This document shows positions 9,814 to 62,118 of a stretch of 64,000 bases of DNA, piece after piece; position 1 is the stretch's first letter, and each line of letters begins with the position of its first letter. The stretch spans positions 1 through 64,000 of IMG/VR virus record IMGVR_UViG_651324045_000004; one strand, written 5' to 3'. This DNA comes from a virus. Below the pieces are notes generated by a model. That model was not told where the DNA came from and made no database searches. It saw nothing but the letters and a program-made list of their open reading frames with translations. Both the position numbers and the translations under genes were made by a program.

Positions 9814-10461
9814 TTAAATCTTCTCTTCGAATCTACGTCTTAACTCATCGAGACTCACGACGTTATCTGGCGGGGTGACGTCCTCCATCATTCGAATTTC
9901 TTCTTCGGTGTGATATTCCCAATCGTGCTCGTGCTTTAGACTCTTCAGGTAGATTACCGTCAGCAAGCTGTCTTCTTTCAGGAAGTGGCCGTATGACTTT
10001 TGGATAACGGTTTTTACCTCGTCCTGAGTTTTTCCGCCGAGACATAGATGGTTGAACCTGGCGTTTATCTTGAGCATTTTGTCGACGGGGCCAGAGAACA
10101 CCTTTGCGACGCGCGCAAAGCGTATGATCTCACCGTTCTCAGCACCAACCAGGCAAACAATAGAATTTTCACTAACGCGGTTGACCCAGGTTACGCCGCT
10201 GCGCATTGTGTTGAAGTATGCCTCCTTTAAACCAAGATAAGGTTTTCTGAAGGAGATGAGCGGGACGTATCGTTTGCATGTATTGATTTCAAATGACGCT
10301 CCCTGTTCCAGCAGTGATGCCCGAGTCTTGTAGATCGGGCAGGCGGTTTTGATGCCGCAAACCTCACACATGTCCCTGGAAGCAACCAGTTTAGAGTCAG
10401 GCTTGATGGTGTAAGTCCCATCTTCAAGTCTTCTGATGTAACGCGACTGTTTGATATTCAT
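9814..10461 (-). CDS. hypothetical protein
   Basis: 215-aa ORF. A hairpin/terminator-like element lies downstream (9777-9805). Confidence 0.5.
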   Translation of the reverse strand: MNIKQSRYIRRLEDGTYTIKPDSKLVASRDMCEVCGIKTACPIYKTRASLLEQGASFEINTCKRYVPLISFRKPYLGLKEAYFNTMRSGVTWVNRVSENSIVCLVGAENGEIIRFARVAKVFSGPVDKMLKINARFNHLCLGGKTQDEVKTVIQKSYGHFLKEDSLLTVIYLKSLKHEHDWEYHTEEEIRMMEDVTPPDNVVSLDELRRRFEEKI

Positions 10462-10534
10462 TTGATGCTTGGCCTTGTATTTTTTATCACATTAAACCAA
10501 AAACAAGGCTCACGTACTAAAATGCCTTGAAAAG

Positions 10535-10615
10535 TTATCCACATATCAACTGGATAGATCCCAATAATAAGATCCCTATATAGATCATACATTAGATCAA
10601 AAGAGATCCCCGATC
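10535..10615. promoter_or_regulatory. Replication-origin control region: consensus DnaA box (TTATCCACA, 10535-10543) followed by six GATC (Dam) sites within 59 bp
   Basis: Read directly from the sequence. This is the same architecture as the P1 oriR and oriC methylation-sensitive origins, immediately upstream of the iterons and repA. Confidence 0.7.
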
Positions 10616-10656
10616 CTCGCAACCCGCGCCACGCCTGCTCTGAAAGACCATTGGCG

Positions 10657-10756
10657 TATGCTGTCAGCGGAAAAATATATGCTGCGAGCGGCGTGCGATA
10701 TGCTGTGGACTGTTTTGTGTATGCTGCTAACGGTAAATGAAGTATGCTACCAGCGG
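10657..10756. repeat. Five direct 14-bp iterons (consensus TATGCTGYCAGCGG, about 20-bp periodicity) upstream of repA (origin iterons)
   Basis: Copies at about 10657, 10678, 10699, 10719 and 10743. Confidence 0.8.
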
Positions 10757-10777
10757 TTTAAGCAATGAGGTGTCCAC

Positions 10778-11890
10778 ATGTCCACAGGCAAAAAAAAGAA
10801 GAAAGAAAACATACCGTTAATCGATGATGATGACGCGATCGACGAAAGTGTTCCGGCGTTATTCACAGGCGACCTCACCCCTAACAGCAACAATACCGTA
10901 CAACCCATTGCGTTGATGAGACTTGGATTGTTCGTTCCCACGCTCAAAGGCACGAAGAATAGTAAACGAAATAACTCCAACCAGATAGACGCCTCAAAAG
11001 AACTGGTGCAACTGGAGGTTGCGAGATCTGAGGGTTATTCCGATATCAAAATAACCGGCCCACGTCTCGATATGGATCACGACTTCAAGACGTGGGTTGG
11101 TGTCGTCCGATCACTTGCCGAGTATGGGGAGGCCAGTGGGCGCGTTGAGCTAAGCATCACGAAGTTTGCCAAGTTCTGTGGGTATCCATCTTCCCAGATA
11201 CGCAAGACGCTGCGAGACAGGATTACGAACAGCCTGCTGAAGATAATGCGCACAACGCTTTCGTTCCAGCGCACATACGAAGAGAAGAACGTGGACGGCT
11301 CGAACAAGATATCTCTGCTCATGGTTCATCTGGTGAATAGCGTGGATTACAATGAGAAAAATGACACCATCATATTTCACGCCGAACCAAAGCTGTCAGA
11401 GCTATACCGGTTTGACCACAAAGTTCTTCTCCAACTGAAGGTCATCAACAAACTTCCACGTAAAGAAACCGCCCAGGCGCTATACACCTTCATTGAAAGT
11501 CTTCCGGCGCGGCCGGCGCCAATATCTCTGGCTCGTTTGCGTGCGAGGTTGAATCTGAATAGCTCAAGCATCAGCTCCCAAAATCAGACCATTCGAAACG
11601 GTCTGAAGTCTCTTAAAGAGCTTGGCTACCTCGATTACTCAGAGGTGAAGCGTGGTCGCTCTGTATTTATTCAGATTCATGGACGCAACCCGAAACTTAA
11701 AGTCATTGGTGAAGAGAAGCCGTCGAAGCCTGAGAAGCCTGCAGAGCAAGTGGAAGGGCCACAAGAGAACGGCGAGCTGGAAGTCGTAAAACAAAACATG
11801 ATCAAGAAGATAGCTGAACTTTCTGCGGATTTGACGCCTGAGAATATAAAGCTAATTGAGATACTTAGTAACGGTCTGAAGTTGCTTTGA
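10778..11890 (+). CDS. repA: Iteron-binding plasmid replication initiator (RepA-like, P1/RepFIB-type architecture)
   Basis: 370-aa plus-strand gene flanked by iteron arrays on both sides, with a DnaA box and GATC cluster upstream. A terminator follows inside the downstream iterons. Confidence 0.75.
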   Translation: MSTGKKKKKENIPLIDDDDAIDESVPALFTGDLTPNSNNTVQPIALMRLGLFVPTLKGTKNSKRNNSNQIDASKELVQLEVARSEGYSDIKITGPRLDMDHDFKTWVGVVRSLAEYGEASGRVELSITKFAKFCGYPSSQIRKTLRDRITNSLLKIMRTTLSFQRTYEEKNVDGSNKISLLMVHLVNSVDYNEKNDTIIFHAEPKLSELYRFDHKVLLQLKVINKLPRKETAQALYTFIESLPARPAPISLARLRARLNLNSSSISSQNQTIRNGLKSLKELGYLDYSEVKRGRSVFIQIHGRNPKLKVIGEEKPSKPEKPAEQVEGPQENGELEVVKQNMIKKIAELSADLTPENIKLIEILSNGLKLL

Positions 11891-12142
11891 TATGCTCTGA
11901 GCGGTGCAATATATGCTGTGAACGGCAAATGGTATGCTGCCAGCGGTGATTTGACTATTAGATATGCTGTCAGCGGTGATTAGGAAGGTCTGGAATCGTT
12001 TATTCACACCAAATTTAAGCCCTCGAATAGAGGGCTTTTTTATTTCGTATGCTGTCAGCGGTTGTGGATATGCTGTCAGCGGCTCAATGTATGTTGCCAG
12101 CGGTAATTGATATGCTGTCAGCGGTACGCTATGCCGCCAGCG
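11891..12142. repeat. Nine direct copies of the same 14-bp iteron downstream of repA (incA-like copy-control array)
   Basis: Copies at about 11891, 11913, 11933, 11963, 12048, 12068, 12089, 12110 and 12129. Two are slightly degenerate (TATGTTGCCAGCGG, TATGCCGCCAGCGG). Confidence 0.8.
12017..12041 (+). terminator. Rho-independent terminator for repA
   Basis: Hairpin AAGCCCTC-GAATA-GAGGGCTT followed by TTTTTTATTT. Confidence 0.65.
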
Positions 12143-12188
12143 GTGACTTCGATCAGGAGTCATTTTTAGAGGGTTCCATTTAGCCCCC

Positions 12189-12239
12189 TAGTGGTTACTA
12201 ACCTGTGAGACGTTGATATCAAAGGGTTAGTAACCACTA
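12189..12239. repeat. Perfect 15-bp inverted repeat (TAGTGGTTACTAACC / GGTTAGTAACCACTA) separated by 21 bp
   Basis: Seen directly in the sequence, just distal to the incA-like iterons. Function unknown (protein-binding site or long hairpin). Confidence 0.5.
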
Positions 12240-12253
12240 ACATTTATCTAATG

Positions 12254-12469
12254 TCAGGTGATCGATGAGAGAAGATTGTAGAGACGATGTGATTTAGCCT
12301 TCGCCTTCGTCTCACCATTTTCAATCATCTGCCACGAGCGGTAGCGATACACAATCTGGCAGTCGTCACGCTCCAGTCTTGTTGAGAAGTCTTCCGGGCG
12401 AGTAAATCCTTTTGCACGCCAGTATGGTCTAATTTTTTCAATTTCCATGCTGTTAGCGATGTTGTTCAT
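12254..12469 (-). CDS. hypothetical protein
   Basis: 71-aa ORF. Its start overlaps the stop of the upstream ORF (ATGA). Confidence 0.4.
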   Translation of the reverse strand: MNNIANSMEIEKIRPYWRAKGFTRPEDFSTRLERDDCQIVYRYRSWQMIENGETKAKAKSHRLYNLLSSIT

Positions 12470-21460: not shown

Positions 21461-21883
21461 TTAGGCTACGTACATTTCTGCCAGCGTTCTTTTTCCGACT
21501 CCCCGCCCGGTAATGGCTATACGCTGAGCACGCTGGAGACGGTAGTCTTTGACGCTGGCCGCTTTACCTACCTCGACAAATTCCTCCGCAACCTTTGATA
21601 TCAGTCGGTCTCGATAAGCCTCAAACTCAGCAAGATGTTTTTTGACATTGCTTGATTTAGCTATCACAGCGACATAATCTCGAACCATCGGGTCGCGCAC
21701 GCGCTTCAGAATTATCTTTGCTGCGCTACGTGCTGCGCTATTCGCTCGGCGCCCATCAAGCTCCGCCTGCCGCATAGCGAGACGAATGGTGACGGGACAG
21801 TCTGCGAACTCCCAGAATGCTGACTTATTTAGAGCGATAATGGCCTTATCGATATACTCCTGTGACACTGTAACCTCGCTCAT
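21461..21883 (-). CDS. hypothetical protein
   Basis: 140-aa ORF. Its start overlaps the stop of the dnaE C-terminal part. Confidence 0.5.
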   Translation of the reverse strand: MSEVTVSQEYIDKAIIALNKSAFWEFADCPVTIRLAMRQAELDGRRANSAARSAAKIILKRVRDPMVRDYVAVIAKSSNVKKHLAEFEAYRDRLISKVAEEFVEVGKAASVKDYRLQRAQRIAITGRGVGKRTLAEMYVA

Positions 21884-23042
21884 GACAATGCTTCCTTAAT
21901 GTCTTCCATAATAAGTTCCAATTTCTCACCTTCTTCCGGTCTGAAGTGAAGTATGCCCGGATTGAATCCGTAAAACACGGTCAAGTCCATTGCGCCAAAG
22001 TATTCCTTGCGTCCGACCAAATCCGTTGCCTTGGTTTTGTCGTTGAAGAGACTGGCCGATAGGCGACCACACGTCAGGACGTAGGTTGGTTTAACCAGCT
22101 CAAGCTCTTTCTTCATAAACTCGATGTAGGTGTTCTCTGCGTCGCGGGACAGTGGCAACTTCTTATCTTGCTTAATGACGCCGGTAACGTACACCTCGCT
22201 CATGCGCAGATCGCCATTAACGAGCATTTTCGCCTTAAAATCTTCGTAGCCGTTCTCCATGAAGATCCCCGTCCTGATATCGTTGCCGTTTGCTGTGTCG
22301 AGGATAATCATTATTTTTGGCGATACGCCGATATGCGGAGTAACCAGATCTTCGCCCACCCCGACCTCTTTACGCAGCTCTTCCATCAACATCGATACTT
22401 CTGCCTGGCGTTTCGGATTCATCTCGAACGGGCGACTCACTTTTACCGCATCGATAATGAGGCTTCCCATCAGCTCTGATTGAGCCTTGCGGCGGGATTC
22501 CGCCATCGCTGGTTCGCTGCCAGGCTCAATACTGGCAAATGCACCAACGGCGTCCAGCGCTTCCTGTACACGGATATTGCACAGTCTGGCTTCGATCGCC
22601 TCTTTGAATTGTGCTCTGGACTCAAACTTACCACCTACACGCTCGCGAGCACGCATAATGGCTAAGCTGCCTTTTTCAGAACAACCTTTGACAGCTGAGA
22701 AGGGGGCATATAGCGCCGCCCGGCCATCCTTCAGTTCGACTATTTCGATGCGGTCAGTTGAGAGATTGATGTCTGGCGGCATCACGATAACGCCGCGTGC
22801 CAGTGCATCCTTTACAACAGCTCGGTGTTTTTCATCATCCTGAATTGTCAGTGCGGCGGCGAAGAATGCAGCCGGATGGTGAGTCTTCAGATACATTGCC
22901 TGGTAGCTGATTGCGGTATAGGCCACGGCGTGTGATTTGTTAAAGCCATACGACCCGAATTTCTCGAAAGCATCCCAGACCTCTTTTGCTTTTGATTCGC
23001 TGAGTCCGGGCTTCTCTGAGATGATTTTAGTAATCTTCATGT
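21880..23042 (-). CDS. dnaE: DNA polymerase III alpha (DnaE-type) C-terminal part, encoded as a separate gene
   Basis: GSYGFNKSHAVAYTAISYQAMYLKTHHPAAFFAA (DnaE fingers/HhH region) and an OB-like tail. Its own conserved RBS CATGTGTTTTCCTTTG is at 23040, so the start is MKITKIISEK, not the ORF-track start at 23100. Confidence 0.8.
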
Positions 23043-23110
23043 GTTTTCCTTTGTCATTAAACAAGTTGTTTTCAGAAACTAAAAAACAACTTGTTTTCAC
23101 ATTTTACTTA

Positions 23111-25483
23111 TTACTTAGAGGTGTCAAATTCAATAATGTCGGCATCTTCTTTCATGGCTTGCTCGACAGTGCGCTTCTTACCATCAGAGCACGGATGAAG
23201 CGCGGCGCGATGAACAGTGACAATCTGGCCGTCGTCAGTCTGGACTTCCAACCAACCAAGCTGCGCACGATCTGAAAAGTCGGCGCCAATCTTTTTCATC
23301 TTCTCGATGTCTTTTTTACCAATCGCCTTCCTTACCATATCTGCTTCCGACAGAGAGAAGCCGGCGAGGATCTGCGACGCTTTCATGATTTGTTCCTGAT
23401 AGACCAAAACCCCGTTGGTTTCTTTGGTCAATTCGTCAAGGCTTGGGTGAAGTGAGTGAGCGTCCTCATAACCACGCGCAACGCTGACGTAGGTGTCCAT
23501 CATGCCGGACTGCATTGGGCCTGGGCGATATAGCGCGGTAGTTGCGACGGCCATTTCAAACGACATTGGTTTGATGCCGCTTCCAAGGTTTTTAAGCAGG
23601 TTTCTCATGCCGCCAGACTCGAACTGGAACACGCCAGTTGTTTCACCCAACGCCATACCCTCAAGGACGCGTTTATCATCGAGAGGGATTGCGTCGAGGT
23701 TAACGTCGATCCCCTCGTTCTCTTTGATGTAGCGTTTAGCGAGAGCCAGTAGATCGAGCGTAGCCAGCCCTAACACGTCCAGCTTGATAAGCCCCATTGA
23801 TTCACAGAAACGCTTGTCAAACGCGATACAGCGCACCCCGTTGCGTAACTCGACTGGTGTTCGCTCAGTCAGTGGTACGCCAGAAACGATGACACCCGCG
23901 GCGTGCTTACCATAGCTGCGCATCAGTGACTGGAGTTTGCACGCGGCGTCGAATGCTTCCGGGTTTGCTTTCGCGTATTTGTCGAGGGCGCCCAGCTGCT
24001 CGCGCGTCTCTTCGAGAGTTAATCCCTCATCATCGAATGGCTTCAGCTGCTTAGATACCGCCATATCTTCCGTTGACACGCCGTAGATACGCGCTGTGTC
24101 TCGGAGTGCCGACGCCATACCCAGATAAGAGAAGTTAGGAATGCCGGCCACGTATTTTTCGCCGTAGTGCTCTTCGAGATATTCAAGTACCCGAGGTCGT
24201 TGCGCCTGACTGAAGTCCAGATCCGCGTCAGGCAAGTCCAGACGTTCAGGGTTGATGAAACGCTCAAACAGGAGACCGTGGCGTAGCGGGTCGATGTTGG
24301 TGATCCCAATCGCCCACGCAACAAGTGAACCGGCGGACGATCCGCGACCCGGCCCGACCGGGATATCCTGTTTACGCGCCCATGACAGTAGATTTTCAAC
24401 CATCAGGAAGTAGCCGCAAAATCCCAGCTTTTTCAGAACACTCAACTCATAACGTAAACGGTTGATGTAAACCTGATACTGCTCTGCTGGTGGCTTCCAA
24501 CCAAATTCAAGCGTTGTTAAACGACGCTTCAATCCTTCTGCCGCCATTCGCGTCAACGTATCACCCTCATCTTCCGCCATAACTGGCAGACTGACCGGCA
24601 TCTCATGCCAGCGCCAGCTGCACGCCGCAATGATTTCGTCCTGAGTCTCGTTAACCATCGCGGAACTAATACCCTCGATACCCATGCGTTTCGAGAATTC
24701 CATCAAGCGAACCAGCAAATGCTTGCGGTTCTGGATAGAGTTGTCGCGCTGGTGTGGGATGTGAAAACGATATGGCTGATCCGTTTTGATGTTATTGATA
24801 ACCATATGCGCAATGTCGCGCAGGTCTGCGTCCTCTTCTTTCTCGTAATAAGCTGGATAGAACGCAACAGGGGCGATTTTAAGCGCATTAGCCACCTTCA
24901 TCGCCTTCATGTTCAACTGATCGTAGAGAGGCGTAGCAATCGGATACACAACGCTGTAGAAGTTGTCACGCCCACCAACCTCCAGCAATTTAGTCAGGAT
25001 TTTAACGAAGTCCTGCCGATGAAATATGCTATCGCGATCAGACGTCAGTAGAAGGATGTTGCCCTTTGAATACGTTTCGGCCAGCTGCTCCAACGAGATG
25101 CGCGGGAAAAAGTGAAACTGCTCGCGGCGGTTGCCCAACGTCATCAGCTCACAGAGATCTTTGTATCCTTCATCGTTCTTTATCAGCGCGGTGAAGCTGT
25201 ACAGGCGCCCAAGTTTGCATACCGGGATCTCTGAACCTTCCTCTTTGGCTTTTCTGACCGCTGCTTCATAAAAAGGATTGTCACTAATGACCAGACGGAC
25301 GCCGCAAATAACAGCCAGGTCATCGCCAGCCGACTGCTGCAGCGGGATGATTGAAGCCAGACTCATTGTGTCTGCGCTGATAATGGCTGAATAACCTAAC
25401 TCTTTCGCAGCCTTCGCTACGCGGCTTGCTTTCAGCGCCGATTCACCAAGAGAAAAATCGGTGCGTACCATTAATGCCTTCAT
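23111..25483 (-). CDS. dnaE: DNA polymerase III alpha (DnaE-type) N-terminal part: PHP domain plus palm/thumb/fingers
   Basis: PHP N-terminus (MKALMVRTDFSLGESAL), polymerase core (GFCGYFLMVENLLSWARKQDIPVGPGRGSSAGSLVAWAIGIT). It ends with TAA 65 bp before the C-terminal part. Confidence 0.85.
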   Translation of the reverse strand: MKALMVRTDFSLGESALKASRVAKAAKELGYSAIISADTMSLASIIPLQQSAGDDLAVICGVRLVISDNPFYEAAVRKAKEEGSEIPVCKLGRLYSFTALIKNDEGYKDLCELMTLGNRREQFHFFPRISLEQLAETYSKGNILLLTSDRDSIFHRQDFVKILTKLLEVGGRDNFYSVVYPIATPLYDQLNMKAMKVANALKIAPVAFYPAYYEKEEDADLRDIAHMVINNIKTDQPYRFHIPHQRDNSIQNRKHLLVRLMEFSKRMGIEGISSAMVNETQDEIIAACSWRWHEMPVSLPVMAEDEGDTLTRMAAEGLKRRLTTLEFGWKPPAEQYQVYINRLRYELSVLKKLGFCGYFLMVENLLSWARKQDIPVGPGRGSSAGSLVAWAIGITNIDPLRHGLLFERFINPERLDLPDADLDFSQAQRPRVLEYLEEHYGEKYVAGIPNFSYLGMASALRDTARIYGVSTEDMAVSKQLKPFDDEGLTLEETREQLGALDKYAKANPEAFDAACKLQSLMRSYGKHAAGVIVSGVPLTERTPVELRNGVRCIAFDKRFCESMGLIKLDVLGLATLDLLALAKRYIKENEGIDVNLDAIPLDDKRVLEGMALGETTGVFQFESGGMRNLLKNLGSGIKPMSFEMAVATTALYRPGPMQSGMMDTYVSVARGYEDAHSLHPSLDELTKETNGVLVYQEQIMKASQILAGFSLSEADMVRKAIGKKDIEKMKKIGADFSDRAQLGWLEVQTDDGQIVTVHRAALHPCSDGKKRTVEQAMKEDADIIEFDTSK

Positions 25484-27009: not shown

Positions 27010-29022
27010 CTACGAAAGTAGGCGTTGCATTTGCTTGATGAGCGTTTCGGCTAAATCACCAACATTGTTCAGACAGATGTTGTCGCGGTAGAAGTGACGC
27101 GGAGCGTCTGTCAAAATCCCGATCCCCAGAAGATGGATATCGGTATCCTGCTCAATCTGTTTTGTGACCATTTTCAGGTGGCCAGTCAAACCACGCCCCT
27201 GAGCCGCTGGACTTCCGTCACTAAGCACAATCATGATTTTGCGATCTTCCTGGCGGCCAGAGAAATGTTGAAGCAAGGCCAGTATGCTTTCTCCATCGAT
27301 ATTTTCAGCCAGTATCATCGTACCTGCGAGAGCGCCAAGGTTGCATATCGTTTGTTTGCTGGATATCGGCGTCTCCCACCCCTTGATAATTGGCAGAAAA
27401 AGCGCTTCAGAGCGGTTAAACTCGGACTTCCCAGGCATCGCCAGAGAAGATGTTGTGAAGCCGGTTATCATAGTTTTCACGTTGATACGCGCCAATGCAT
27501 CCGCCAGTGTGTAGGCTGCTGCACAAGCTGTCTTGATTTTTTGCCCTCTCATGGAGCCAGACATATCAATAACAATCTGCACGCATGAGTTGACCGCGCG
27601 TTTGACCTCCAGCTTGCGAAAAACTCGGTCATCATCGACGGACAGGCGATACAGACTTGGGCCATGCAGTCGGCCGCGACGCTGACCTGGGACAAACTGA
27701 TTGCGGTTCTGGCTGGCTATCGTTCGCTCAAGATCTTTAGCGAGTGTCGCGACGATGTCATCGCCAATTAGAGGCTTAATATTCTTATTGAAGACGGCCT
27801 CATGTTTTGGGATCACCATGTAGTTATCAGCGTCACCGTACATGTGGAACCCTTTCGGCGAAGTGGCCAGAACGTTTCTGAAGAACTCCGATGCGTGCTC
27901 AAGCCTCCCCATAAAGTCGTAAGTGCGCTCATACGGACGATAGCCGGTCGACAATTCGGATTCGCTGGAAATAATCATCTTCATTGCCCCTTCCATAGAC
28001 ATATCCATGGCGCCTTTTGGTAGTTTGGTCGACTCCAGCTTTTCCAGATCGCCTTTTGTTGGTTTGGGAATATCACCCGTTCCGCTTTCTGCATCGCTCG
28101 GTTCGTCCCCGATACCATCTGACTTTTTGTCTTCTTCGGATTCAGCAGAACCGCCATCTCCTGCATCGGCCGATGCAGCTTCACTTCCTTCGCTCTCGGA
28201 TGATTCCGGGGAACCATTTTCCTCCCCATCTCCAGGTGCGTCTGATTGTTCTTGCTCGTCAGACTCATCATGCCAGGGCAGATCGCTGCCACTACCACAA
28301 TCGTCTTCGGACGGTTCGCTTGACGATTTCCCTTTTCCTTTTTCTTTGCTATCTGAACCGTCAGGTTCTTTGCTTTCCATTGGCTTGTCGACCAGCAGTC
28401 GGACAATTAGCGCGGCCACTGCCACACTGTCGCTCGTGCTGCTTATTTTGGGGATCATCTTATCGACACCATGTTTAATCAGGATTGATACCGGCTCTTT
28501 AACGCTTTCCCAGCGGTCTTCCATGTAGTCGATGAACGGCGTTTGATCATTCCAAGCACGCAGCACGGGAACCAGATAGAACTCCATAAACATGCGGGTC
28601 TGATCGCCCAGCTTTTCAGCAATGGCCTCCATTTCTTTAGGAATGAAAACCGTATCGATGACATGCTTTTGTGTGTTGATGAGGTTTGCTCTGGAGCCTT
28701 TGAACATCTCCCCCATTTTTCGCTCAATGAAGGTGTCTTCTACGGCGTTCCAGACGAAGCTGGTGGCTTTCGTACTGTCTGTGAAAAGGACGTGAGCGAC
28801 TTCGTGATCGATGAATCCGCGTACCGCCATCAGGAACTTGTCGCTGGCGTCGTCGGGTATTGATGGTATGCAGATGCAGAGAGGTTCGCCGGCTTTGTTG
28901 TATTCAACATATGCCTTATCTCCACGTTCTATGACGGGGATGTTGCGTGCTACCAGCATTGAAACGACGTTTTTAATCGCCTCGCGAAACTTAGTGATAT
29001 CTTTAACTGAAGTCTTTTTCAT
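27010..29022 (-). CDS. CobT-like protein with a central poly-acidic S/E/D-rich region and a C-terminal von Willebrand A domain
   Basis: MIDAS motif QIVIDMSGSM. A roughly 100-aa acidic low-complexity segment. It is the partner of the CobS-like ATPase. Confidence 0.7.
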   Translation of the reverse strand: MKKTSVKDITKFREAIKNVVSMLVARNIPVIERGDKAYVEYNKAGEPLCICIPSIPDDASDKFLMAVRGFIDHEVAHVLFTDSTKATSFVWNAVEDTFIERKMGEMFKGSRANLINTQKHVIDTVFIPKEMEAIAEKLGDQTRMFMEFYLVPVLRAWNDQTPFIDYMEDRWESVKEPVSILIKHGVDKMIPKISSTSDSVAVAALIVRLLVDKPMESKEPDGSDSKEKGKGKSSSEPSEDDCGSGSDLPWHDESDEQEQSDAPGDGEENGSPESSESEGSEAASADAGDGGSAESEEDKKSDGIGDEPSDAESGTGDIPKPTKGDLEKLESTKLPKGAMDMSMEGAMKMIISSESELSTGYRPYERTYDFMGRLEHASEFFRNVLATSPKGFHMYGDADNYMVIPKHEAVFNKNIKPLIGDDIVATLAKDLERTIASQNRNQFVPGQRRGRLHGPSLYRLSVDDDRVFRKLEVKRAVNSCVQIVIDMSGSMRGQKIKTACAAAYTLADALARINVKTMITGFTTSSLAMPGKSEFNRSEALFLPIIKGWETPISSKQTICNLGALAGTMILAENIDGESILALLQHFSGRQEDRKIMIVLSDGSPAAQGRGLTGHLKMVTKQIEQDTDIHLLGIGILTDAPRHFYRDNICLNNVGDLAETLIKQMQRLLS

Positions 29023-29327: not shown

Positions 29328-29548
29328 GTTAATACCATTAAATAGTTTATTGCTTATTAGTATGTCTTAAATGATTCATGTCAAAGTTACTATTATTTTT
29401 TTAAGATTACAACAAATTTGCACCAAAAAAGCAGACTTAGCCTATTGATTTTTATTCTATTTTGTGGTTATTTAGCGCCGTCACCCAAAGTTGGCGGTGT
29501 GTATTTACATTTTTGGTTCAGTGGTTTAGTCTTGAACAATACGTAAAT

Positions 29549-29610
29549 ATGTGATTACTTACTAAAATGATTTAATAGTATGTGGTTACTTACTAAAATA
29601 ATTCAATACA
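29549..29610. repeat. Two tandem 31-bp direct repeats (ATGTGRTTACTTACTAAAATRATTYAATA) in the promoter region of the XRE-family gene
   Basis: Seen directly: 29549-29579 and 29580-29610. Confidence 0.6.
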
Positions 29611-29625
29611 AGGCAGACTATAACA

Positions 29626-29930
29626 TGTACGAACCCAAAGGGCGTTACCGTCCGTTTATGACCGCAGCGATGCTCACCTGTGGCAAAACACAAGCTCAGA
29701 TTGCAAAAGAAGTTGGATTTGAGAACGCTAACAACATTTCTCTCATCAAATCTGGCCGTGCTCATCTTTCGTTAGACAAGGTCATCCCATTCGCGAGAGC
29801 TGTTGGTGCGCCGCCAGACGATTTTATGATGATGTACTTATCCGAGAGATTTCCCGAAATATATGAATTTGTTAAAAAAATAAAGAATGAAAATGATGCT
29901 CTGAAGAGCAAGTTAGGCATTACTGATTGA
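29626..29930 (+). CDS. XRE/Cro-C1-type helix-turn-helix transcriptional regulator
   Basis: HTH segment CGKTQAQIAKEVGFENANNISLIKSGR. Start set at ATG 29626 (MYEPKG) with an AAGG SD, not the ORF-track start inside the repeat. Confidence 0.6.
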
Positions 29931-30954
29931 TCTTACATGTTTCAATTAAGAATTCAGAGTATGCTGACATTGCCTCGGACATCCGGTCAAGATAGTCGTG
30001 TCTGTCATAGACGCGATCTATTCCCTCAAGACTGTGGTTCATGATTTTACGAGCCACGTCTTGCTCTACACCGAGTCGAGAGAGTGTACTTCTGGCCGTC
30101 CTTCGTAAATCTCTGATTTCGAAGGGTGCCGGAAGGTTATCGGAAAGATAACCTCTACTCATAATTCTTCTTGATGCCTGAGCTATCAGAACCTTAGATG
30201 CAGGCTTCATTGCATTCTTTGGGGAGGGAACCAGCCAATCGCTGTTCCCGGCTGCGGCCATCATTTTATTAATGCACAGCTTCATTATGGGGCTAATGGG
30301 TAGTGAATGTTCACGACCAGACTTATTCCTACTACCCTGATTCCATACATCATTATTGAGATCGAATTCAGCTCGTTTAGCCCGGAGCACTTCATCCGGC
30401 CGTCTGGCTGAGCAGAGCACGAAACGCGCGGCCCAACGCGTGCTCTCTGAAACATCGGCAAAGTCCCACATGTGCCAAAATTTTTCCAGCTCATCATCCG
30501 ACAACACACGCTCCCGCGGTCTTGGCTTCAGTCCACCGGCTACTTTGTTAAGAGACATCGCTCCAAGTGGGGAAGTCTCGATCACACCCTGGAACTCACA
30601 CCACCCAAGGAACTGTTTTAAAACAGAAAAAACGCGCCGGCTTTGTACTAACTTGCCATCCAACACCAGGGCATTAATTAGTCTGTTAACTGTGAGGCGG
30701 TTGATGTCCGAAACTTTTTTGTTGCCGATCGCCGGCATTGCGTGAACGAGAATACAGTGAACACCTAGCTCTGGGCGCCGGCGCGTCACAAGGAGTGATA
30801 AGCGCGTGAAAAACATAAAGGCTTCACTGAATTTCGAATCGGCATCCATGGTCATCATTTGCGAACCGGTCATGGCTTGGCAGCGCTGGAGATATTGAAC
30901 TGTTTCAGCAGAACAATTTTCCAAAGCTTTATCGATTTCGAACGAATTTAACAT
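29920..30954 (-). CDS. int: Tyrosine recombinase / phage integrase (P4-like family)
   Basis: C-terminal catalytic residues (R...HDLRRT...RVYDRHDY). Start chosen at MLNSFEIDKA, preceded by GGAGG. The ORF-track N-terminal extension is unlikely. Confidence 0.9.
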   Translation of the reverse strand: MLNSFEIDKALENCSAETVQYLQRCQAMTGSQMMTMDADSKFSEAFMFFTRLSLLVTRRRPELGVHCILVHAMPAIGNKKVSDINRLTVNRLINALVLDGKLVQSRRVFSVLKQFLGWCEFQGVIETSPLGAMSLNKVAGGLKPRPRERVLSDDELEKFWHMWDFADVSESTRWAARFVLCSARRPDEVLRAKRAEFDLNNDVWNQGSRNKSGREHSLPISPIMKLCINKMMAAAGNSDWLVPSPKNAMKPASKVLIAQASRRIMSRGYLSDNLPAPFEIRDLRRTARSTLSRLGVEQDVARKIMNHSLEGIDRVYDRHDYLDRMSEAMSAYSEFLIETCKINQ

Positions 30955-31038
30955 CGCTGCCTCCATGTAACTGTATGCATATACAGTATTTAACGGTATT
31001 TTAGTTATAAGGTCAACCAAAGATAACTGGTTTTTTAC

Positions 31039-31071
31039 TGTGATTCCATACCTATAGAGTATGGAATCACA
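31039..31071. promoter_or_regulatory. Perfect 13-bp-arm palindrome TGTGATTCCATAC-ctataga-GTATGGAATCACA upstream of int. A second palindrome, ACTGTATGCATATACAGT, lies at 30970-30987.
   Basis: Seen directly. The position between the divergent int and cargo genes suggests an operator or recombination (att core-type) site. Confidence 0.5.
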
Positions 31072-31131
31072 AAAGGGCGATTTGAATAAATTTAGAGGCT
31101 GTAGCACAATGGTTGTACATAACATTGGAGA

Positions 31132-31722
31132 ATGCATATGGGCCTTGTGTCACCCATTGAAGAAGATGTTTATCTTGAGGAATCGGGATTCCGACGGAAA
31201 AAGTTTGTCTATGACAAGCGCGTTCATCATAGTTATATCTTTGTTGCCGGCGGTGAGGTTTACACCGTAGTTTTCGGGAGCATTAAAGATGAGAAGACGT
31301 TTCAGAAAATTGGCTACAGCTTAGAGCCTGGCATGGCTTTCCCTCACAATGGGATGTCAGAGGTTTACTTCGATATTTGGATTGATCGTGAGTCTTTCGG
31401 AGATTTCCGGCACGTAAAATTCAAAGGGTTGGCGGGTGGTGTTGTATTGGAACAAGTAGCTTTAGCAATGCTTCAACATTATCAAACCTTTGATATTGGA
31501 GGGTTTGTTTTCCAAGCTGCTTCCGGTGGCGTAGCCGATATTGATAGGAAAACTTCCCTCGAAGAGACATACGATTATATTCTTGGGTTAAAACACGAAC
31601 AACGTTATAATAAGAAAACAGGATTACCTAAAGGTAAACCCAGGAAGCTCCTTCCAGACTTCCTGAAAGTTTACAAAGATGACTCAACCGGGAGGGCTTG
31701 TTATGCCGTTACGTCGCAATAA
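31132..31722 (+). CDS. hypothetical protein (integrase-adjacent cargo)
   Basis: 196-aa plus-strand ORF. Confidence 0.45.
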   Translation: MHMGLVSPIEEDVYLEESGFRRKKFVYDKRVHHSYIFVAGGEVYTVVFGSIKDEKTFQKIGYSLEPGMAFPHNGMSEVYFDIWIDRESFGDFRHVKFKGLAGGVVLEQVALAMLQHYQTFDIGGFVFQAASGGVADIDRKTSLEETYDYILGLKHEQRYNKKTGLPKGKPRKLLPDFLKVYKDDSTGRACYAVTSQ

Positions 31723-35493: not shown

Positions 35494-35569
35494 TGGTGCC
35501 CAAGCAGGTGTTGAACCTGCATCATCGGACTCAGCATCCTCTCGACTTACCGTTTTGTCGCATTGGGCA
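35494..35569 (-). tRNA. tRNA-like element 1: 7-bp acceptor stem (TGCCCAA/TTGGGCA), D-stem CGAC/GTCG, T-arm GCAGG-TTCAACA-CCTGC. The anticodon arm is imperfect.
   Basis: Folded by hand. The anticodon stem has mismatches, so this may be a degenerate or unusual tRNA. Confidence 0.35.
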
Positions 35570-44049: not shown

Positions 44050-44377
44050 ACCTAAATAAGCTCTTACTTACTTTTTGGGGAGATGATAAACGCTGGCGTG
44101 GGGTTTTGAAAGCGGAAAAGACAGGTTGTTTGCTTGAGGCCCAAGGCGGTGATTCTGGCTTCCGTCATACCCCTTTATGTTTTAAAAACAAAGAAGAGAT
44201 ATATAATAACTACCAGAGCAAGGCTTTTAAATAACACCCCAGACACAAAGAATAAGGCGCTGGAAGCGCCTGATTCTTTCAGTATTCTGGGAGTTTTAGG
44301 AACCAAAACAGTGCCTGGCTCCTATATTATTTAATAGCTTTTTAAAGTCTTTAAAAGATAAAGGGGGGATCGCCGAT

Positions 44378-44749
44378 CTACTGCTTCTGCTCCAGCTCAC
44401 GGCGGATTTGTTCGCCGCGCATTTCTGCTTCAGACGCTGGAGTCTCGCGAAGCACGGCAATGGTTTCCGCAATACGCTCAGGCGATTCGCTGGCCAGATT
44501 CATGATGGCGGCACGAATAACGTCTGAACGCGTGAAGCGATTCCAGCGGTCAACGTTCTCCATGACAGAGATAAGGCTGATGAACTCATCCTCGATGCTC
44601 ATCGTCCGGCTCTTGATACTGGACTTCCCACGAGTAGGTCTTCCCTGTGGTCGAGTCGGGGAGCGCATCGGTTGTTTTACTTCTGACTCCGTGGATTGCG
44701 AAACTTCTTCCGCGGCTTGTGGCTTTTTAGCCAGATCACCCATTTTCAT
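44378..44749 (-). CDS. putative centromere-binding partition protein (ParG/ParB-like, RHH-like C-terminus)
   Basis: Small basic protein immediately downstream of parA, with a 1-bp gap. Confidence 0.45.
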   Translation of the reverse strand: MKMGDLAKKPQAAEEVSQSTESEVKQPMRSPTRPQGRPTRGKSSIKSRTMSIEDEFISLISVMENVDRWNRFTRSDVIRAAIMNLASESPERIAETIAVLRETPASEAEMRGEQIRRELEQKQ

Positions 44750-44750
44750 T

Positions 44751-45419
44751 TTACTGCGCCTCCAGACTCATCAAATAATCAACCAACTCTTCAATCTCCG
44801 ACTCCGCCTTTTTATCGCGGTCTTTTCCTTTCATTTCGAAGATAGACCGTCCAGCCTCTTCTGCATCGTCATACACGTTACGAGTGTAGATATTGGTTGG
44901 AACACATTTAATGCCGAAAGACTCGATAATATCTTTGGACGAAAGGATACGAGACACCTGAGACGGCAGTGACGGGCACTGATTCAAGACGGCACGAATT
45001 TGAACTTCCGGGTTTGATGATTTTACGCTTTCGAGCACAGTGTCCAGATCTCGCAGTGACTTCAGATCGCGCCGCTTTGGTCTGAGCGGTAGCAGAACGA
45101 TGTCGGCAATAAGCATGGCCTCACGCTGAATTTCTGAGTCGAAGCCGCCAGCATCAACAACGATGTACTCATACCGGCCATTCAAAGACTGAAGGTGCTT
45201 TACAATGTCATTCTCAATGTAAGAAAAGGCGATGAGATCGAGATTTTTATTATTGCGGCGCTCTTCGCACCATGAGGTTGTCGTCTGCTGGATGTCGATG
45301 TCGGTAATGTGAACCTTTTTACCTCTCTTCAGTTGCAGACCTGCTGCTACCTGCTGGGCGACCGTAGACTTACCCGGCCCACCCTTCGTCCCGCCGACGA
45401 TGATGAGTTTGGTTTCCAT
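44751..45419 (-). CDS. parA: ParA-family partition ATPase (small type Ib)
   Basis: Deviant Walker A GGTKGGPGKST. ParA fold. Imperfect inverted repeats upstream (45425-45480). Confidence 0.9.
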   Translation of the reverse strand: METKLIIVGGTKGGPGKSTVAQQVAAGLQLKRGKKVHITDIDIQQTTTSWCEERRNNKNLDLIAFSYIENDIVKHLQSLNGRYEYIVVDAGGFDSEIQREAMLIADIVLLPLRPKRRDLKSLRDLDTVLESVKSSNPEVQIRAVLNQCPSLPSQVSRILSSKDIIESFGIKCVPTNIYTRNVYDDAEEAGRSIFEMKGKDRDKKAESEIEELVDYLMSLEAQ

Positions 45420-60600: not shown

Positions 60601-62107
60601 AGTCCATACCTACTGCAAAGGTGATGACGTCAGATTCCATGCGAGATGTGTAGAGCGTCCAGAGACCAACACGATGCGCCTGGCCGCGTGAAGTACAGCC
60701 GAATGCGACTGACTCAGTTTTGCGGATGCCATAGCGTTTAATCGCTTCCTGATCTTCTACATACTCGACGCTCTGCTTGTAACCGTCCTCTTTGTTGTTG
60801 TAGGTGATAAGAGCAACGGAATAGCGATCTTTACGCGCCGAACCTTTGTATGCAAATGAGCCATTTACCACGTTGCTGTTGGAGAACAGCATCACAGGGT
60901 CTGCTGGAGAATCCTGCGTGATGTGAACCATGCCACCAGCCCAATAAACCATGCCACGGAATGCCCCTGCGATGTCCTGCACGACGCGATAAGCATCTTG
61001 GCGACTGGTAATCTGGGTGTTGATTGCGAAGCGCTTCTCTTTGCCACCGAAGCCATCATCAACGAACGCATCACAGTAGCGACCAATCTGATACAGCTCG
61101 CCGATGTTAATCATCGACTCCTGAACAAACTGACCCAGACCGTAACGAGTGTTCGTCAGCAAGTCGAAGAGAATCCACGCCGGGTTGGAGGATGATGCCA
61201 GCTTAAATGTACCGTCCCAATTGCCGTCGTAGGAGTTCGTGTCAGCGTTATAGTTTGACGGGACACGAATTTTCAAACCTTTAATCAGGTATGAACGAGT
61301 CGGCATTGAAGAACCGAACTGCTCTGAGTTGATTTTCAGGCCAACGAGCGCAGAGTTCGGATAGTTCAGGCTGGTATTGACAATCTCACCGATCGAATCG
61401 ATGTAGGTGTCATCGTAGAGATAGCTGTTATCGGTATGATCTTCAGTCAGACGAATGGCACGCAGAGTATATGCCTTTGCCGGCTTCGGTAAGTCCAGAA
61501 CATAACTACGGTAATAAACACCTGTCTTTTTCGCGGTCAGAGAAATGGTTGCGTTGGATTCTCCCTCTGCAACAACGTCAACAAAGCCGCCGCCATTACC
61601 TGCGTCGATCTGGAATTTAAACTGGACTGTCGTACCGTTAGTATCGCCGCTCTTTTTATCGATGCTGCGAAGTGAAGGAAACTTCATCACCACACGAACG
61701 CGATCGCTGTCCGCAGAATCCAGAGACACGTTAACCTGGCTCGTTTGCTTCAATTGACGCCCTACTGATTTCGGCGTTTCAATGAAGTCAAAACCATCGA
61801 TGACACTTTGATCCTGAGAACCGTCGCGGAACCACCAGGTTACACCGCTGAAGTTGTAGGAATTGTCGCTATTCTGGAGCGGCGTGTCGTTCAGGAAGAT
61901 GGATTTTGCCCCATCAATCAGACCACCGATAACACCCTCACCCAGCAAATCCAATACAGAAGCCATAGCGCGGCTGTTTACCGTGTCATTAGCCTCCACT
62001 GGCGTCCTTGAGCTACCGCCACCCTTACTGCCGCCGCGTCCTGAGATAATCAGGCCGTGCGCGACTAATTGCGAGAGACGGCTTTTTTTGAAATTTGGAA
62101 CTTCCAT
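48674..62107 (-). CDS. Giant central tail fiber / tail tip protein. It is a homolog of lambda gpJ, with about 3000 aa of inserted repetitive fibrous and carbohydrate-binding-like modules (4477 aa).
   Basis: Collinear with lambda J over the N-terminal roughly 1150 aa (LNDTPLQ...GVTWWF, NSALVGLKINSEQFGS, PSNYN...WDGTF, FGCTSRGQAHRVGLW). The C-terminal roughly 150 aa is also J-like. The interior has dozens of about 33-aa repeats (QNTVTQQGKDI...TTNANVAKKADA) and repeated NPSFE...FDDFYVIDVTD modules. Confidence 0.95.
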   Translation of the reverse strand: MEVPNFKKSRLSQLVAHGLIISGRGGSKGGGSSRTPVEANDTVNSRAMASVLDLLGEGVIGGLIDGAKSIFLNDTPLQNSDNSYNFSGVTWWFRDGSQDQSVIDGFDFIETPKSVGRQLKQTSQVNVSLDSADSDRVRVVMKFPSLRSIDKKSGDTNGTTVQFKFQIDAGNGGGFVDVVAEGESNATISLTAKKTGVYYRSYVLDLPKPAKAYTLRAIRLTEDHTDNSYLYDDTYIDSIGEIVNTSLNYPNSALVGLKINSEQFGSSMPTRSYLIKGLKIRVPSNYNADTNSYDGNWDGTFKLASSSNPAWILFDLLTNTRYGLGQFVQESMINIGELYQIGRYCDAFVDDGFGGKEKRFAINTQITSRQDAYRVVQDIAGAFRGMVYWAGGMVHITQDSPADPVMLFSNSNVVNGSFAYKGSARKDRYSVALITYNNKEDGYKQSVEYVEDQEAIKRYGIRKTESVAFGCTSRGQAHRVGLWTLYTSRMESDVITFAVGMDSVFLMPGDIVLIADKFRAGRRNSGRIIGYTSNSIKLDAPVDLTSVGNHITFLSAEGKMVGRDILENGKNITTVTFKTALSSNETPVSDAVWVIAQPDLTPLQARVVSVAEGDDGTSFNITAIQNNPTKYEAIDSGAQLIPQNTTVLDPTFSKPSGLAITEGTYLSSPGNLSVSLTATWQGKSAQYYISWRRSDAGNVSNWKSERVTEEQFELRGVAENGQYDFQVYAVSVGGRKTDPISITYKVLGTMTAPDAPTGLTAVGDYRSIVLNWVNPASVDLDHIEVLASKTNDKSKAQLIAKVSGTTFSHNGLEDSVTWYYWVRAANKRGMLSALNSPLATVATTRDVLSFLQNKITESELGQDLIADINSKAVATEVDAAIDEAKSETKAQVDDARTEAANAVKSAKEALSTAIDKETKDRAQAIANETTARNKAIADEASIRATAISNEVTARTNAIAAEVEARTKAVADEATARAKAVSDEAIARASAITDSVAVEASNRAKAVSDATAALDAKISKEARDRASAVSALDIKTANAINTETLNRISSIEDEARARADALLQEKNNRQSEISNLSTQVQTVNESLAQQISQIAAGTGEQFDSLKIWYFDTNSEGWTEDDGGTVPMSVTDDGWLKSSNSTASCRSPNNMVIDANAYRFLKLRIKKVGKPTWSGKLYWIGASEQGWSESRSLVIDEPEYDANGVATLTIHDIDWRASTTIRRFRFDFLKNQSDTNNLLIDWVAVGRPTPGAGMAALQDEKSARVDADAAEAANRNALAVQMRGSYEGNDLSKVGSGLIFQEQLARVTADKAEAMARQSLETKVDDSVSNINKSLDTLNTQDKAMASDITGLKSSLKDKADASALQTLKTSVDQQGSSISTQGQSITKLQNDLSTTNANVSKKADQTALTALQGTVTQQGKDISAANSSITNLKTSLDTTNSNVAKKADATAVNDLTSRVSATEDKASSQADSIVQLNNSLNNAIADTDASAAMPNNLIVNPSFERGLDGYTGRSAATSVVEISTPHGGTRALKVDAGNVSPGQYVSFVQGRTYEIGVWVKDLGATTDNGAGNNKLRIGNSAGQPVFERPYNSGTIGSDWTLISGRWKATETAKLPVTLSNYLTAGSRCFDDFYVIDVTDSVKIDANASALSSLQNTVTQQGKDIASQSTSITSLSNQMVNGRQNMWVRSVYSVQLANNTTEPTFSDINGKAPISIDEVPDAAKLDFASAGSYVIAHYKAFVKVNADTTITMAPGSRVFDDTGAVYVNGVRVAFGNAGWNTVSFDLKAGWSTVEFLVNQWTGQAYINLGFKLSEKVAQLNSALGMNALSNAISAVTSNVSTVGDRVTSTSQSVTDLRNSLEQTNANLANKADAQALSTLQNTVTQQGKDIASASSSIASLQNNLSTTNANVAKKADATALNALQNTVTQQGSSISSQGNSITQLKNDVDSLSIGASNLLRNSDKSGAPALCLSPTSGFTSYELKAITGLVGKNIAVKTQYTMTLWFKEYADGFGTTKPFTSAVIGRSAVGTDSWSLRYYSQNGIVTRDGDLYKWVGTITAESGSTLFVGVAGLRFLFEDKSQKTGCQIYQVKLEEGNKGTSWSPASEDLSDAISGNSQALSSLDSRVTKAEGSITSQGNSITQLQNELTATNANVSKKADASALASLQNTVTQQGKDITSASSDISLLKNSLATTDANVAKKADSSALSSLQSTVTQQGKDLSSVGNRTTNLENNLKTTDANVSKKADASAVDTLQNTVTQQGKDITSASDAITSLNNSVGAMTNMGDNLIQDANLEGDGSAFRTQQNSGTTGSIVAFGAYGENSAGARMLKVNATSPGLFANGKKPTPVNGSRKFRYIVRAKGVSGSMNMLLRRWNFNGSAEGNYEDKNVTLTSDWQTITWDTSFSPRTGADGQAFGIYCHPSNAEIWIDSFQVFDITDAVNNDATASALSDLSTKVTKQGDTVSSQGTSITKLQNDLTSTKTDVSKKADASALQTLQNTVTDQGKTLISQGNAITTLTNTVDTVKGDVAKKADATALNNLSTRVSNAEDKISSSSDAITSLNSSLNQQSKRGANILPDGTFESYSSGYNITNGRVIVTTDDSHGGNKCIRVTRPNDYNANATDNSDNHIFSGFQVRDNAVFYVECWVKLDAKSTTMDGAVQIAIGMSLQYQDNSWQWPALIKSAKDLSADSWTKVSGYLKSSKSGIKQAMARISIPNVSSVKAGNSFLIDDLVITDVTDAYNAQQTADATASAVSTLQTTVSKQGDSITSQGDSITTLNNGLATANKAIGTKADASALQTLQNAVNQQGKDVASNTSNITALSNQIVNGKQGTWSRRIYKCQLSSAAAEPTFSDIQGLSPVFMDEVADAAKLDFSGAGSYVVAHYKAMVRVAADTTISVSPGSRVFDDSGAVYVNGVRQAVAISGTATLGFVLSSGWNTVEFLVNQWTGNAYINLGFKLGDKVAELYSGLGVSSLSTAINSINSNVNKVGDQTSSNSAAITSLKNSLSDTDSAVAKKADASALQTLQNTVTQQGKDIASQSDSVTNLSNALSNVSIGGVNLIKNSGDMAGWSGKTNEIFRGNAVISATTKAGSSYRDLKEITLDAPVDNAEYVYSFFAKGGENGQSMTAYFYNPNSTTSGVSSQGVSDGSVDGRMSFTLTTEWVRYWVKWKQKPGTGSKRIILARIQASSTKDQTVSITSPKLEVGNMPTEWSPAPSDMASSNDLSSLKTTVDANSSSIQSVTSRVQKTEDNISTQNTAITKLQGDLSTTNNLVSTKADSAALQTLQNSVTQQGKDISSQGTRVTSIENSLTSGANLIPNAKMLNGAQGWGGAATTVDGYAAVNSSAGWQPVSPLFEVTPGDTLDLSMMCLAGQAITVGWGLRFDGPSLSNATIYASNLSYQAGEKKAVSGTFVVPVGATTARLQPNTGATASLTVYNVVVTRRDAGTMANSSAIDSLTSTVQTQGDAISSVGGRTTSLENSLKTTNDNVSKKADSTTVQTLQNTVTQQGKDISAAGTNITSMQASLTRRTVFTVTAKGNGNSVTPGVFDESGKNLFTPGRSWALVTFAKQSDGSTVIATSKTYDVFGSANNGATMSADIEALASGTYVCVLTFDEPSGNRGKILSALESLGGTSEVVNSLPYRGAYILLGRKGMKPGDGLELRAPTGGDGTAHISTSVEFVNGVMMGLGAAGGVMMKADANASAITTLQNTVTQQGKDITSSSSAITSLQNGLVAANSNIDKKADATALQSLQNTVTQQGKDISTQSGNVTNLQNSLSATNTGLANLVADSDASKKIIGNLLTNSSFERGLEGFSGGASFIKVIDAQSPNSGSKILSCGAGTGTVSQSIAVTKDRTYKIGVFARCQSGTVVDNQSNNKLRIGNSSLLADFMFKPTDLPTGSTWKEISGTWKATVSGSVDVSINSSLKSGNQYFDDFYFIDITDIVNINATSNAVASLTSRVTSAEGTVSSHTGSITNLSNSLNSLNNTVSGKADASALQSLQNTVTQQGKDLSSASDSVTDLKSSLNTLKVQSNPWIDGTFETYDNNQQLGGSTAIVTTDFKSSGNKCLKVTRPANTSGNSDKTIGSYSAVRQSAKYRVEFWAMMPASEAPPSGWTVVVGLHSINKDGGNDWQGITFNEAGLGGRDQWVKFTGVVKVSPSVTRSHVWISTRGQSGSNTPGYAVYIDDFVITDITDAADAQATADANATAISSLQTKVSDIDGKVTAQTSQLSSMQSKVDASSSKVDQLSKTISDSQSTQASLNTSLQSQIDAQASANIKNQADLNSATTSIASIKSTQATQATQISAMAKTQTDMTASLNSQSASIQTLQEAVSNNDALNSTWMVKMQTNNNGQKYAAGIALGVDGKNMQSQFLVQADRFALINTSNGNTTTPFVIDNGVTYMNAAFIKDGSIGSAKVGDLMSSGFQENVRGWRISRDGTMNINGSGPGSSRTVITNGKIEVYDSNNRLRVRMGIF

Positions 62108-62118
62108 TTATCCCACCG

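Follow-up and report, generated by a model that had tools for sequence, protein, structure and literature searches.

In a 64,000-nucleotide stretch of viral DNA (positions 1 to 64,000 of the IMG/VR record IMGVR_UViG_651324045_000004, hereafter the window), the region between 10.5 and 12.15 kb is very probably the prophage-state, or plasmid-mode, replicon of a Klebsiella SSU5-type phage-plasmid, orthologous to the oriR-repA-incA module of phage P1 and to the RepFIB basic replicon. Several observations support this reading directly: the anatomy of the region is statistically significant, both the protein and the DNA are homologous to those of P1, relatives keep the layout, nearly identical elements are circular and extrachromosomal, and the element carries this plasmid initiator and iteron cluster alone. 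A preliminary description of the window had proposed a P1/RepFIB-style replicon in which five iterons ahead of the gene and nine behind it mirror P1 incC/oriR-repA-incA. Our results agree with this proposal: Rep is homologous to both P1 RepA and RepFIB RepA, the origin DNA can be aligned with P1 oriR, P1 has the same iteron counts, and the layout is kept in two diverged relatives.

The 370-amino-acid rep gene previously noted is an intact open reading frame (ORF) lying between two arrays of direct repeats (Table 1). The upstream array contains the five 14-bp iterons that had been described, in phase at spacings of 21, 21, 21 and 23 bp and stopping 21 bp short of the repA start codon, but one copy is degenerate. 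Four of the five match TATGCTGYCAGCGG with at most two mismatches, while the third (TATGCTGTGGACTG, at 10699) has four and can be identified from its phase and from the equivalent degenerate third copy in relatives. The nine downstream iterons are also present, the first directly abutting the repA stop codon, and all nine are direct repeats on the plus strand, oriented like those of the origin. Searching the window for TATGCTGYCAGCGG with at most two mismatches returned 13 matches, all on the plus strand and all within 10657-12143. Matches with three mismatches elsewhere in the window numbered 10, which is the chance level, and the total of 23 was reached by none of 100 shuffled sequences. Additionally, the two-mismatch search gave no match in the other 49 kb of the reference plasmid (NZ_CP068974), and no second annotated rep gene, plasmid-type initiator or iteron cluster was found elsewhere in the element. 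The Klebsiella phage p4727 and the Escherichia coli phage PhiR41_1, whose Rep proteins are 80% identical to that of the window, share its iteron core and its all-direct layout of five plus nine copies, and the number of upstream iterons and their spacing (21/21/21/22-23 bp) are common to P1, p4727 and PhiR41_1. The iteron sequences of SSU5 and P1, with Rep proteins 47-48% identical to that of the window, are unlike those found here.

The earlier description had also placed the repA terminator among the downstream iterons, and the predicted hairpin does sit there, where 85 bp separate the fourth copy from the fifth. Its fold (-14.4 kcal/mol, z = -5.0) was not matched in stability by any of 200 shuffled sequences. 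The equivalent gap of the control array in p4727 has no terminator; this absence rules out the embedded terminator as a conserved feature, and it appears to be specific to the lineage of the window. Since the first four downstream iterons lie before the predicted terminator, they would be transcribed together with repA.

The origin was examined in an alignment of the window with P1 (K02380, in which the DnaA site, the Dam sites, the incC repeats, the promoter and incA are annotated) and three relatives. The aligned order runs from the DnaA box or boxes through GGATAGATCC, the AGATCC-type heptamers, GATCCCCGATC and CCGCGCCACG to five iterons in 21-bp phase, and the alignment supports homology between the origin DNA of the window and P1 oriR. 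At the left edge, the consensus DnaA box already reported ahead of the iterons coincides exactly in position with the P1 tandem boxes. Lone 9-mers of this kind are not significant, with 20 matches at no more than one mismatch against 11.9 expected. The six GATC sites within 59 bp, likewise noted before, form the only such cluster in the 64 kb, where the mean density is 4.2 per kb. It is the sole spot with at least four GATC per 62 bp, and under a Poisson model at least six sites have a probability of about 2.6e-7 per position, which corresponds to about 0.02 clusters expected per window. Five of the six sites are AGATC(C/A)N heptamers, as in P1, in a stretch of 36% G+C, and the cluster matches the annotated Dam sites of P1 column for column; by analogy it is presumed to be the region of unwinding and of sequestration by SeqA. 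Between these repeats and the iterons, the window shares the CCGCGCCACG block without any difference with p4727, PhiR41_1 and P1. On the right, two tandem TGTCCACA motifs occupy the place of the right-hand DnaA boxes of P1 and are kept in p4727 (GTATCCACATGTCCACA) and PhiR41_1. They are candidate weak sites to which DnaA might bind, and such binding could couple origin function to the translation or transcription of repA. Beyond the window, the element encodes an N6-adenine methyltransferase (L007 39289-39903, equivalent to NZ_CP068974 82288-82902), as does P1; this enzyme could methylate the origin GATC sites without host Dam.

The Rep protein provides the second line of evidence. BLASTP aligned it with P1 RepA (translated from K02380) at 48% identity over P1 residues 20-284, which is nearly all of that protein (E 2e-89), and a tblastn search with Rep matched the RepA of P1, P7 and SSU5, the last at 47% identity. 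Profile searches assigned Rep to known initiator families, through Pfam Rep3_N (the first winged-helix domain, WH1; 37.6 bits against a cut-off of 22.4, E 3.5e-9) and PHROG 775 (E 1.9e-130), while the NCBIfam scan returned no family and comparison of the sequence with PDB chains gave chance matches only. Among the 120 listed of 471 Rep homologues, every one with a named source belonged to the Enterobacterales, and most were called RepB family or RepFIB RepA; homologues named "RepFIB replication protein A" or RepB family were about 50-56% identical to Rep. In the protein, a core of two winged-helix domains (WH1-WH2, approximately residues 68-303) is followed by a disordered linker of Pro, Glu and Lys (309-331) and by a tail of two helices at the C-terminus (332-369). 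A single-sequence AlphaFold model was too poor (predicted local distance difference test, pLDDT, of 45) and was replaced by an alignment-based AlphaFold (AF2) model with pLDDT 72, which has two alpha/beta winged-helix-like units and thus predicts both WH1 and WH2. The 14 best PDB matches of this model were all iteron initiators or WH1 domains (RctB domains 2-3, RepE, MSBI1.176 WH1), and pi, the WH1 of pPS10 RepA and TrfA appeared lower in the match list; the probabilities of these initiator matches ranged from 0.92 to 1.00. In the tail (window 11705-11887, residues 310-370), a Pro/Glu/Lys-rich linker is followed by confidently predicted helices at 332-348 and 354-369. P1 RepA has no such linker or helical tail; RepFIB-type RepA generally has a comparable one, and the tail was therefore rejected as a novelty.

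The identity of the element follows from its close relatives among sequenced plasmids. The 1.9-kb rep region shares 99-99.9% identity with at least 22 plasmid records from Klebsiella (K. pneumoniae) of about 108-112 kb, in which rep is labelled "RepB family plasmid replication initiator protein" or "RepFIB replication protein A", and another 16 kb of the window is collinear with the same plasmids at 98-99.6% identity. The matching plasmid inspected in detail (pfekpn2511-2) is circular, and in the record inspected in full (H1) the only replicon typed was rep_cluster_2469; 167 of 170 matching plasmid records were typed as non-mobilizable. The circular, extrachromosomal state that had been suggested is thus borne out by near identity to circular, non-integrated Klebsiella plasmids. 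Moreover, related replicons are not found only in a chromosomally integrated form, because in complete E. coli genomes they occupy 1039 plasmid places against 11 chromosomal ones. The assignment to phage-plasmids was equally sound. The reference plasmid carries genes for a tail fibre, a 12.9-kb tail protein, a tape measure protein, the major capsid protein, the portal and the large terminase. The methyltransferase and a tyrosine integrase are also encoded by that plasmid, and within the window lies a gene of the endolysin family (PHROG 873). Besides, relatives from Klebsiella and E. coli have been deposited as phages, with Rep proteins 77-79% identical to that of the window (tblastn). Through its near-identical relatives, the element fits the description of a circular, extrachromosomal molecule of about 100-115 kb equipped with a plasmid replicon, partition genes and a full complement of tailed-phage genes, and since the near-identical plasmids carry tail, capsid, terminase and lysis genes, they belong to what has been named the SSU5 supercommunity of phage-plasmids (PMC7969092). 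SSU5-type phage-plasmids have also been described elsewhere (PMC9241755, PMC8969562), and the rep of these relatives is IncFIB or IncFIB(pKPHS1)-like in PlasmidFinder (PMC9241755; PMC8969562; 10.1101/2025.09.12.675607); in one case, phage induction from a Klebsiella SSU5-like plasmid failed (PMC8969562). In PLSDB, the Rep/origin allele class of the window (10400-12300) accounts for about 24 records that reach at least 95% identity, while the commoner class of Klebsiella phage-plasmids comprises 137 records at 60-80% DNA identity, and both classes share the same iteron core. The Rep allele and backbone of the window thus represent a smaller sub-lineage among the SSU5-supercommunity elements.

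Table 1. Coordinates in the window of the replicon parts and of the partition gene pair.
Feature	Position	Strand	Remarks
Consensus DnaA box TTATCCACA	10535-10543	+	Leftmost origin element; in alignment it faces the DnaA-binding site annotated in P1 (K02380 729-746)
Degenerate remnant of the second tandem box of P1, ATATCAACT	10544-10552	+	3 mismatches
Six-GATC (Dam) cluster	10555-10617	+	Sites at 10557, 10571, 10583, 10595, 10605, 10612
G+C-rich block CCGCGCCACGCCTG	10624-10637	+	Between the GATC repeats and the iterons; kept in P1 and relatives
Five direct origin iterons, incC-equivalent	10657-10756	+	Starts at 10657, 10678, 10699, 10720, 10743
Two tandem TGTCCACA motifs (gtgtccacATGtccaca)	10767-10785	+	Over the ribosome-binding site (Shine-Dalgarno) and start codon of repA
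repA, predicted 370-amino-acid iteron-binding initiator of the P1 RepA/RepFIB family	10778-11890	+	Homology, Pfam, PHROG, structural model
Downstream control iterons 1-4, incA-equivalent	11891-11976	+	Starts at 11891, 11912, 11933, 11963
Predicted intrinsic terminator of repA	12017-12043	+	8-bp G+C-rich stem (12017-12037), 5-nucleotide loop, T-run
Downstream control iterons 5-9	12048-12143	+	Starts at 12048, 12069, 12090, 12111, 12130; spacing 21/21/21/19 bp
123-amino-acid gene directly downstream of parA	44378-44749	-	PHROG 5111; no Pfam family
Small ParA-like Walker ATPase, 222 amino acids	44751-45419	-	Pfam AAA_31, MipZ, CbiA, ParA; PHROG 164 "ParA-like partition protein", E 3.6e-48

Some observations weigh against the assignment of this region as a P1-type replicon. 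The phage-plasmid literature searched contained no experimental work on it and no description of its iterons. The second winged-helix domain did not reach the Pfam threshold (Rep3_C, 14.1 against 21.1 bits), and the template modelling (TM) scores of the Rep model against solved initiators were modest (0.24-0.45). Only one good DnaA box was present, compared with two in P1, and p4727 retains two boxes where the second one of the window is degenerate. The nine control iterons are all direct, in contrast to the three direct and six inverted copies of P1, and therefore the geometry of pairing may differ from that of P1. Finally, a consensus scan of the repA region for sigma-70 promoters found none at threshold, and the best candidate of a relaxed scan, TTGGCG-16-AAATAT across the first iteron, matched at 7 of 12 positions. 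P1 RepA shows the same Pfam pattern, with Rep3_C sub-threshold at 20.5 bits. The annotated repA promoter of P1 is likewise weak (TTGCTA / TAGGAT); by analogy, the origin iterons are expected to contain the repA promoter.

The mechanism that we propose for this replicon draws on the work of Abeles, Austin and Chattoraj on P1 and RepFIB. RepA monomers would bind the five in-phase origin iterons, and host DnaA would occupy the left-edge box and perhaps also the weak boxes at the start of repA. The methylated region of GATC heptamers would then open, host DnaB helicase would be loaded afterwards, and SeqA would sequester the region after firing. RepA would repress its own promoter inside the origin iterons, and the nine downstream iterons would bind RepA and hold copy number low through handcuffing with the origin iterons together with titration. 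We infer from the P1 system the dependence on DnaA and on Dam and SeqA, the autoregulation, the handcuffing and the low copy number, the last two of which the preliminary description had also put forward. Control by antisense RNA of the IncFII or ColE1 types was ruled out, as no Rfam family reached threshold; between 9800 and 12800, only three matches had an E of 1 or less, all of them unrelated and sub-threshold.

It is conceivable, although unlikely, that in this same replicon the nine downstream iterons act mainly as a sink that titrates RepA and not by handcuffing. The uniform orientation of the control iterons, which match those of the origin and depart from the three-plus-six arrangement of P1, and the transcription of four of them with repA could both disfavour a stable paired complex. 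Conversely, P1 is the closest relative to have been characterised, and there pairing is accepted as the main mechanism, as work by Pal and Chattoraj in 1988 and by Park and colleagues in 2001 reportedly established, and titration is buffered where the initiator is autoregulated. The sequence does not tell the two processes apart, and they are not mutually exclusive; both have been discussed with regard to iteron systems (PMC6090056). A further, rather doubtful idea is that read-through from repA tunes the binding of RepA to the first four control iterons and so links negative control to the expression of repA. Chromosome 2 of Vibrio cholerae offers a precedent, in that transcription of rctA relieves the binding of RctB to an inhibitory 39-mer (PMC6090056). 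If this were true, read-through tuning and the all-direct control iterons would give a copy-control geometry unlike that of P1.

A more radical alternative holds that the rep-iteron module is a relic, or serves lytic and not prophage replication, and that the element is maintained from another origin with its own helicase, polymerase and recombination genes. The genes for a DnaB-like helicase, a polymerase labelled Pol III alpha, a UvsX-like recombinase and an SbcCD-like nuclease could indeed permit replication independent of RepA. Nevertheless, this is very improbable: the rep ORF is intact and at least 99% conserved in at least 22 plasmids, the five-plus-nine layout and the iteron core are kept across lineages whose Rep proteins are 80% identical, and the record inspected in full has no typed replicon besides this module, with no other annotated plasmid initiator. 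P1, moreover, replicates as a prophage from the homologous module and lytically from a separate origin.

Partition genes are part of the element as well, in a form different from that first suggested. The ParA/ParB-like pair reported at 44378-45419 does include a small ParA-like ATPase of 222 amino acids, which is the predicted partition ATPase of the element, but the pair is not the ParA/ParB of P1 and the 123-amino-acid partner belongs to no Pfam family; by its position only, this partner is presumed to be the centromere-binding protein. The pair has a type Ib-like layout and lies 32 kb from rep, unlinked to the replicon. The features of P1-type (type Ia) partition, namely a ParA of about 400 amino acids with an N-terminal DNA-binding domain, a ParB carrying an N-terminal ParB/Srx domain, and adjacency to the replicon, were not found in this pair; genes of the ParB/Srx family are present in the reference plasmid beyond the window, at 61114-62485. 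A search for a centromere repeat array beside parA gave only short two-copy repeats and one A+T-rich imperfect inverted repeat at 44170-44366, just downstream of the 123-amino-acid gene, with 40-nucleotide arms that are 75% complementary; this repeat is a candidate partition site. Type Ib centromeres are short direct-repeat arrays and no clear array was found beside the parA operon, yet the notion that the repeats downstream of repA are instead the centromere of the ParA system can be set aside as the least probable of all, because they share their sequence with the origin iterons, lie 32 kb from parA, stand at the position of P1 incA in the same number, and the A+T-rich inverted repeat is a better candidate.

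The surrounding genes had been characterised as a T4-like replication set. The UvsX-like recombinase, the SbcCD-like nuclease, the ligase and NrdAB are consistent with that label, but it is only loosely apt, because the polymerase is labelled Pol III alpha subunit in related plasmid records and the helicase is DnaB-like. The polymerase region (21880-25483, minus strand) consists of two adjoining ORFs of 790 and 406 amino acids, both matching PHROG 405 (profile positions 47-773 and 760-1172, respectively), and may represent a split gene or a frameshift. Divergently from the origin, a 215-amino-acid protein with a Cys-rich N-terminus is encoded at 9814-10461 on the minus strand; it matches PHROG 2105 and no Pfam family, is 51% identical to SSU5_070, and its gene always adjoins the replicon in SSU5-type elements. 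At 29548-29608, a 31-bp unit occurs in two tandem copies with 90% identity, between a CobT-like ORF of 670 amino acids (27010-29022) and an ORF of 405 amino acids (29920-31137). Judged by offset from the reference plasmid, it is near genes for a helix-turn-helix regulator and an integrase, and it may be an operator or a recombination site. A tRNA-Gln gene with anticodon CTG is located at 35495-35569 on the minus strand.

As a discovery these results carry little weight: the sequence, the type of element and the replicon family (P1 RepA/RepFIB, IncFIB by PlasmidFinder) are already known and annotated. A fine map of the origin of this lineage was not found in the phage-plasmid literature searched, and the precise map of origin parts presented here, for a clinically widespread lineage of Klebsiella phage-plasmids, may guide incompatibility-based curing, vector construction and studies of copy number. 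In this regard, Rep alleles that are only 80% identical share an iteron core across Klebsiella and E. coli elements, and mutual incompatibility among them is therefore predicted.

Among known systems, a comparison was made with RctB of V. cholerae chromosome 2, whose domains 2-3 gave the best structural match to the Rep model. Its origin, ori2, is also iteron-based, with a DnaA box, the involvement of Dam and SeqA, and separate sites for negative control (PMC6090056). Sequence identity is only about 15%, however, and RctB is much larger; besides, the GATC sites of ori2 lie within the iterons and negative control is exerted through 39-mers. Between SSU5 and the window, synteny extends to both sides of rep (the upstream gene for the 215-amino-acid protein and a downstream 71-amino-acid gene, the latter 42% identical) and backbone genes are held in common with the SSU5/pHCM2, pKpn and related groups (Pfeifer et al., 2021). 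SSU5 differs in its iteron, AACCACTGTAGAGAG, in having downstream iterons in both orientations, and in the tandem duplication of its origin module (JQ965645, 795-1050 and 1185-1445), which is single in the window. Each SSU5 module contains a DnaA-box-like sequence, GATC heptamers and five iterons, the two copies being identical in 79% of columns, and most GATC sites of the rep-proximal one are no longer intact (GAACC/GACCC).

The RepFIB replicon of IncF plasmids shares the protein family with the window, including the C-terminal linker and short helical tail, and its rep is also flanked by direct repeats on both sides. The comparison was made at the protein level, and the host is a phage-plasmid here as opposed to a conjugative F plasmid. 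With P1, and with P7, the element has in common that the replicon belongs to a phage living as a plasmid, and in P1 the DnaA box or boxes, five AGATCC-type Dam heptamers, the CCGCGCCACG block, five iterons, repA and nine iterons follow one another in the same order. The differences, apart from the orientation of the control iterons and the single good left-hand DnaA box, are that the iteron is TATGCTGYCAGCGG in the window and TGTGCTGGAGGG in P1, that two weak TGTCCACA motifs over the start codon replace the right-hand DnaA boxes, that the window has a predicted terminator within the control array, that its Rep has an N-terminal extension of about 12 amino acids and a C-terminal linker and helical tail of about 60, and that its partition genes are non-adjacent and not of the P1 type. 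Altogether, these departures from the P1 replicon are minor.

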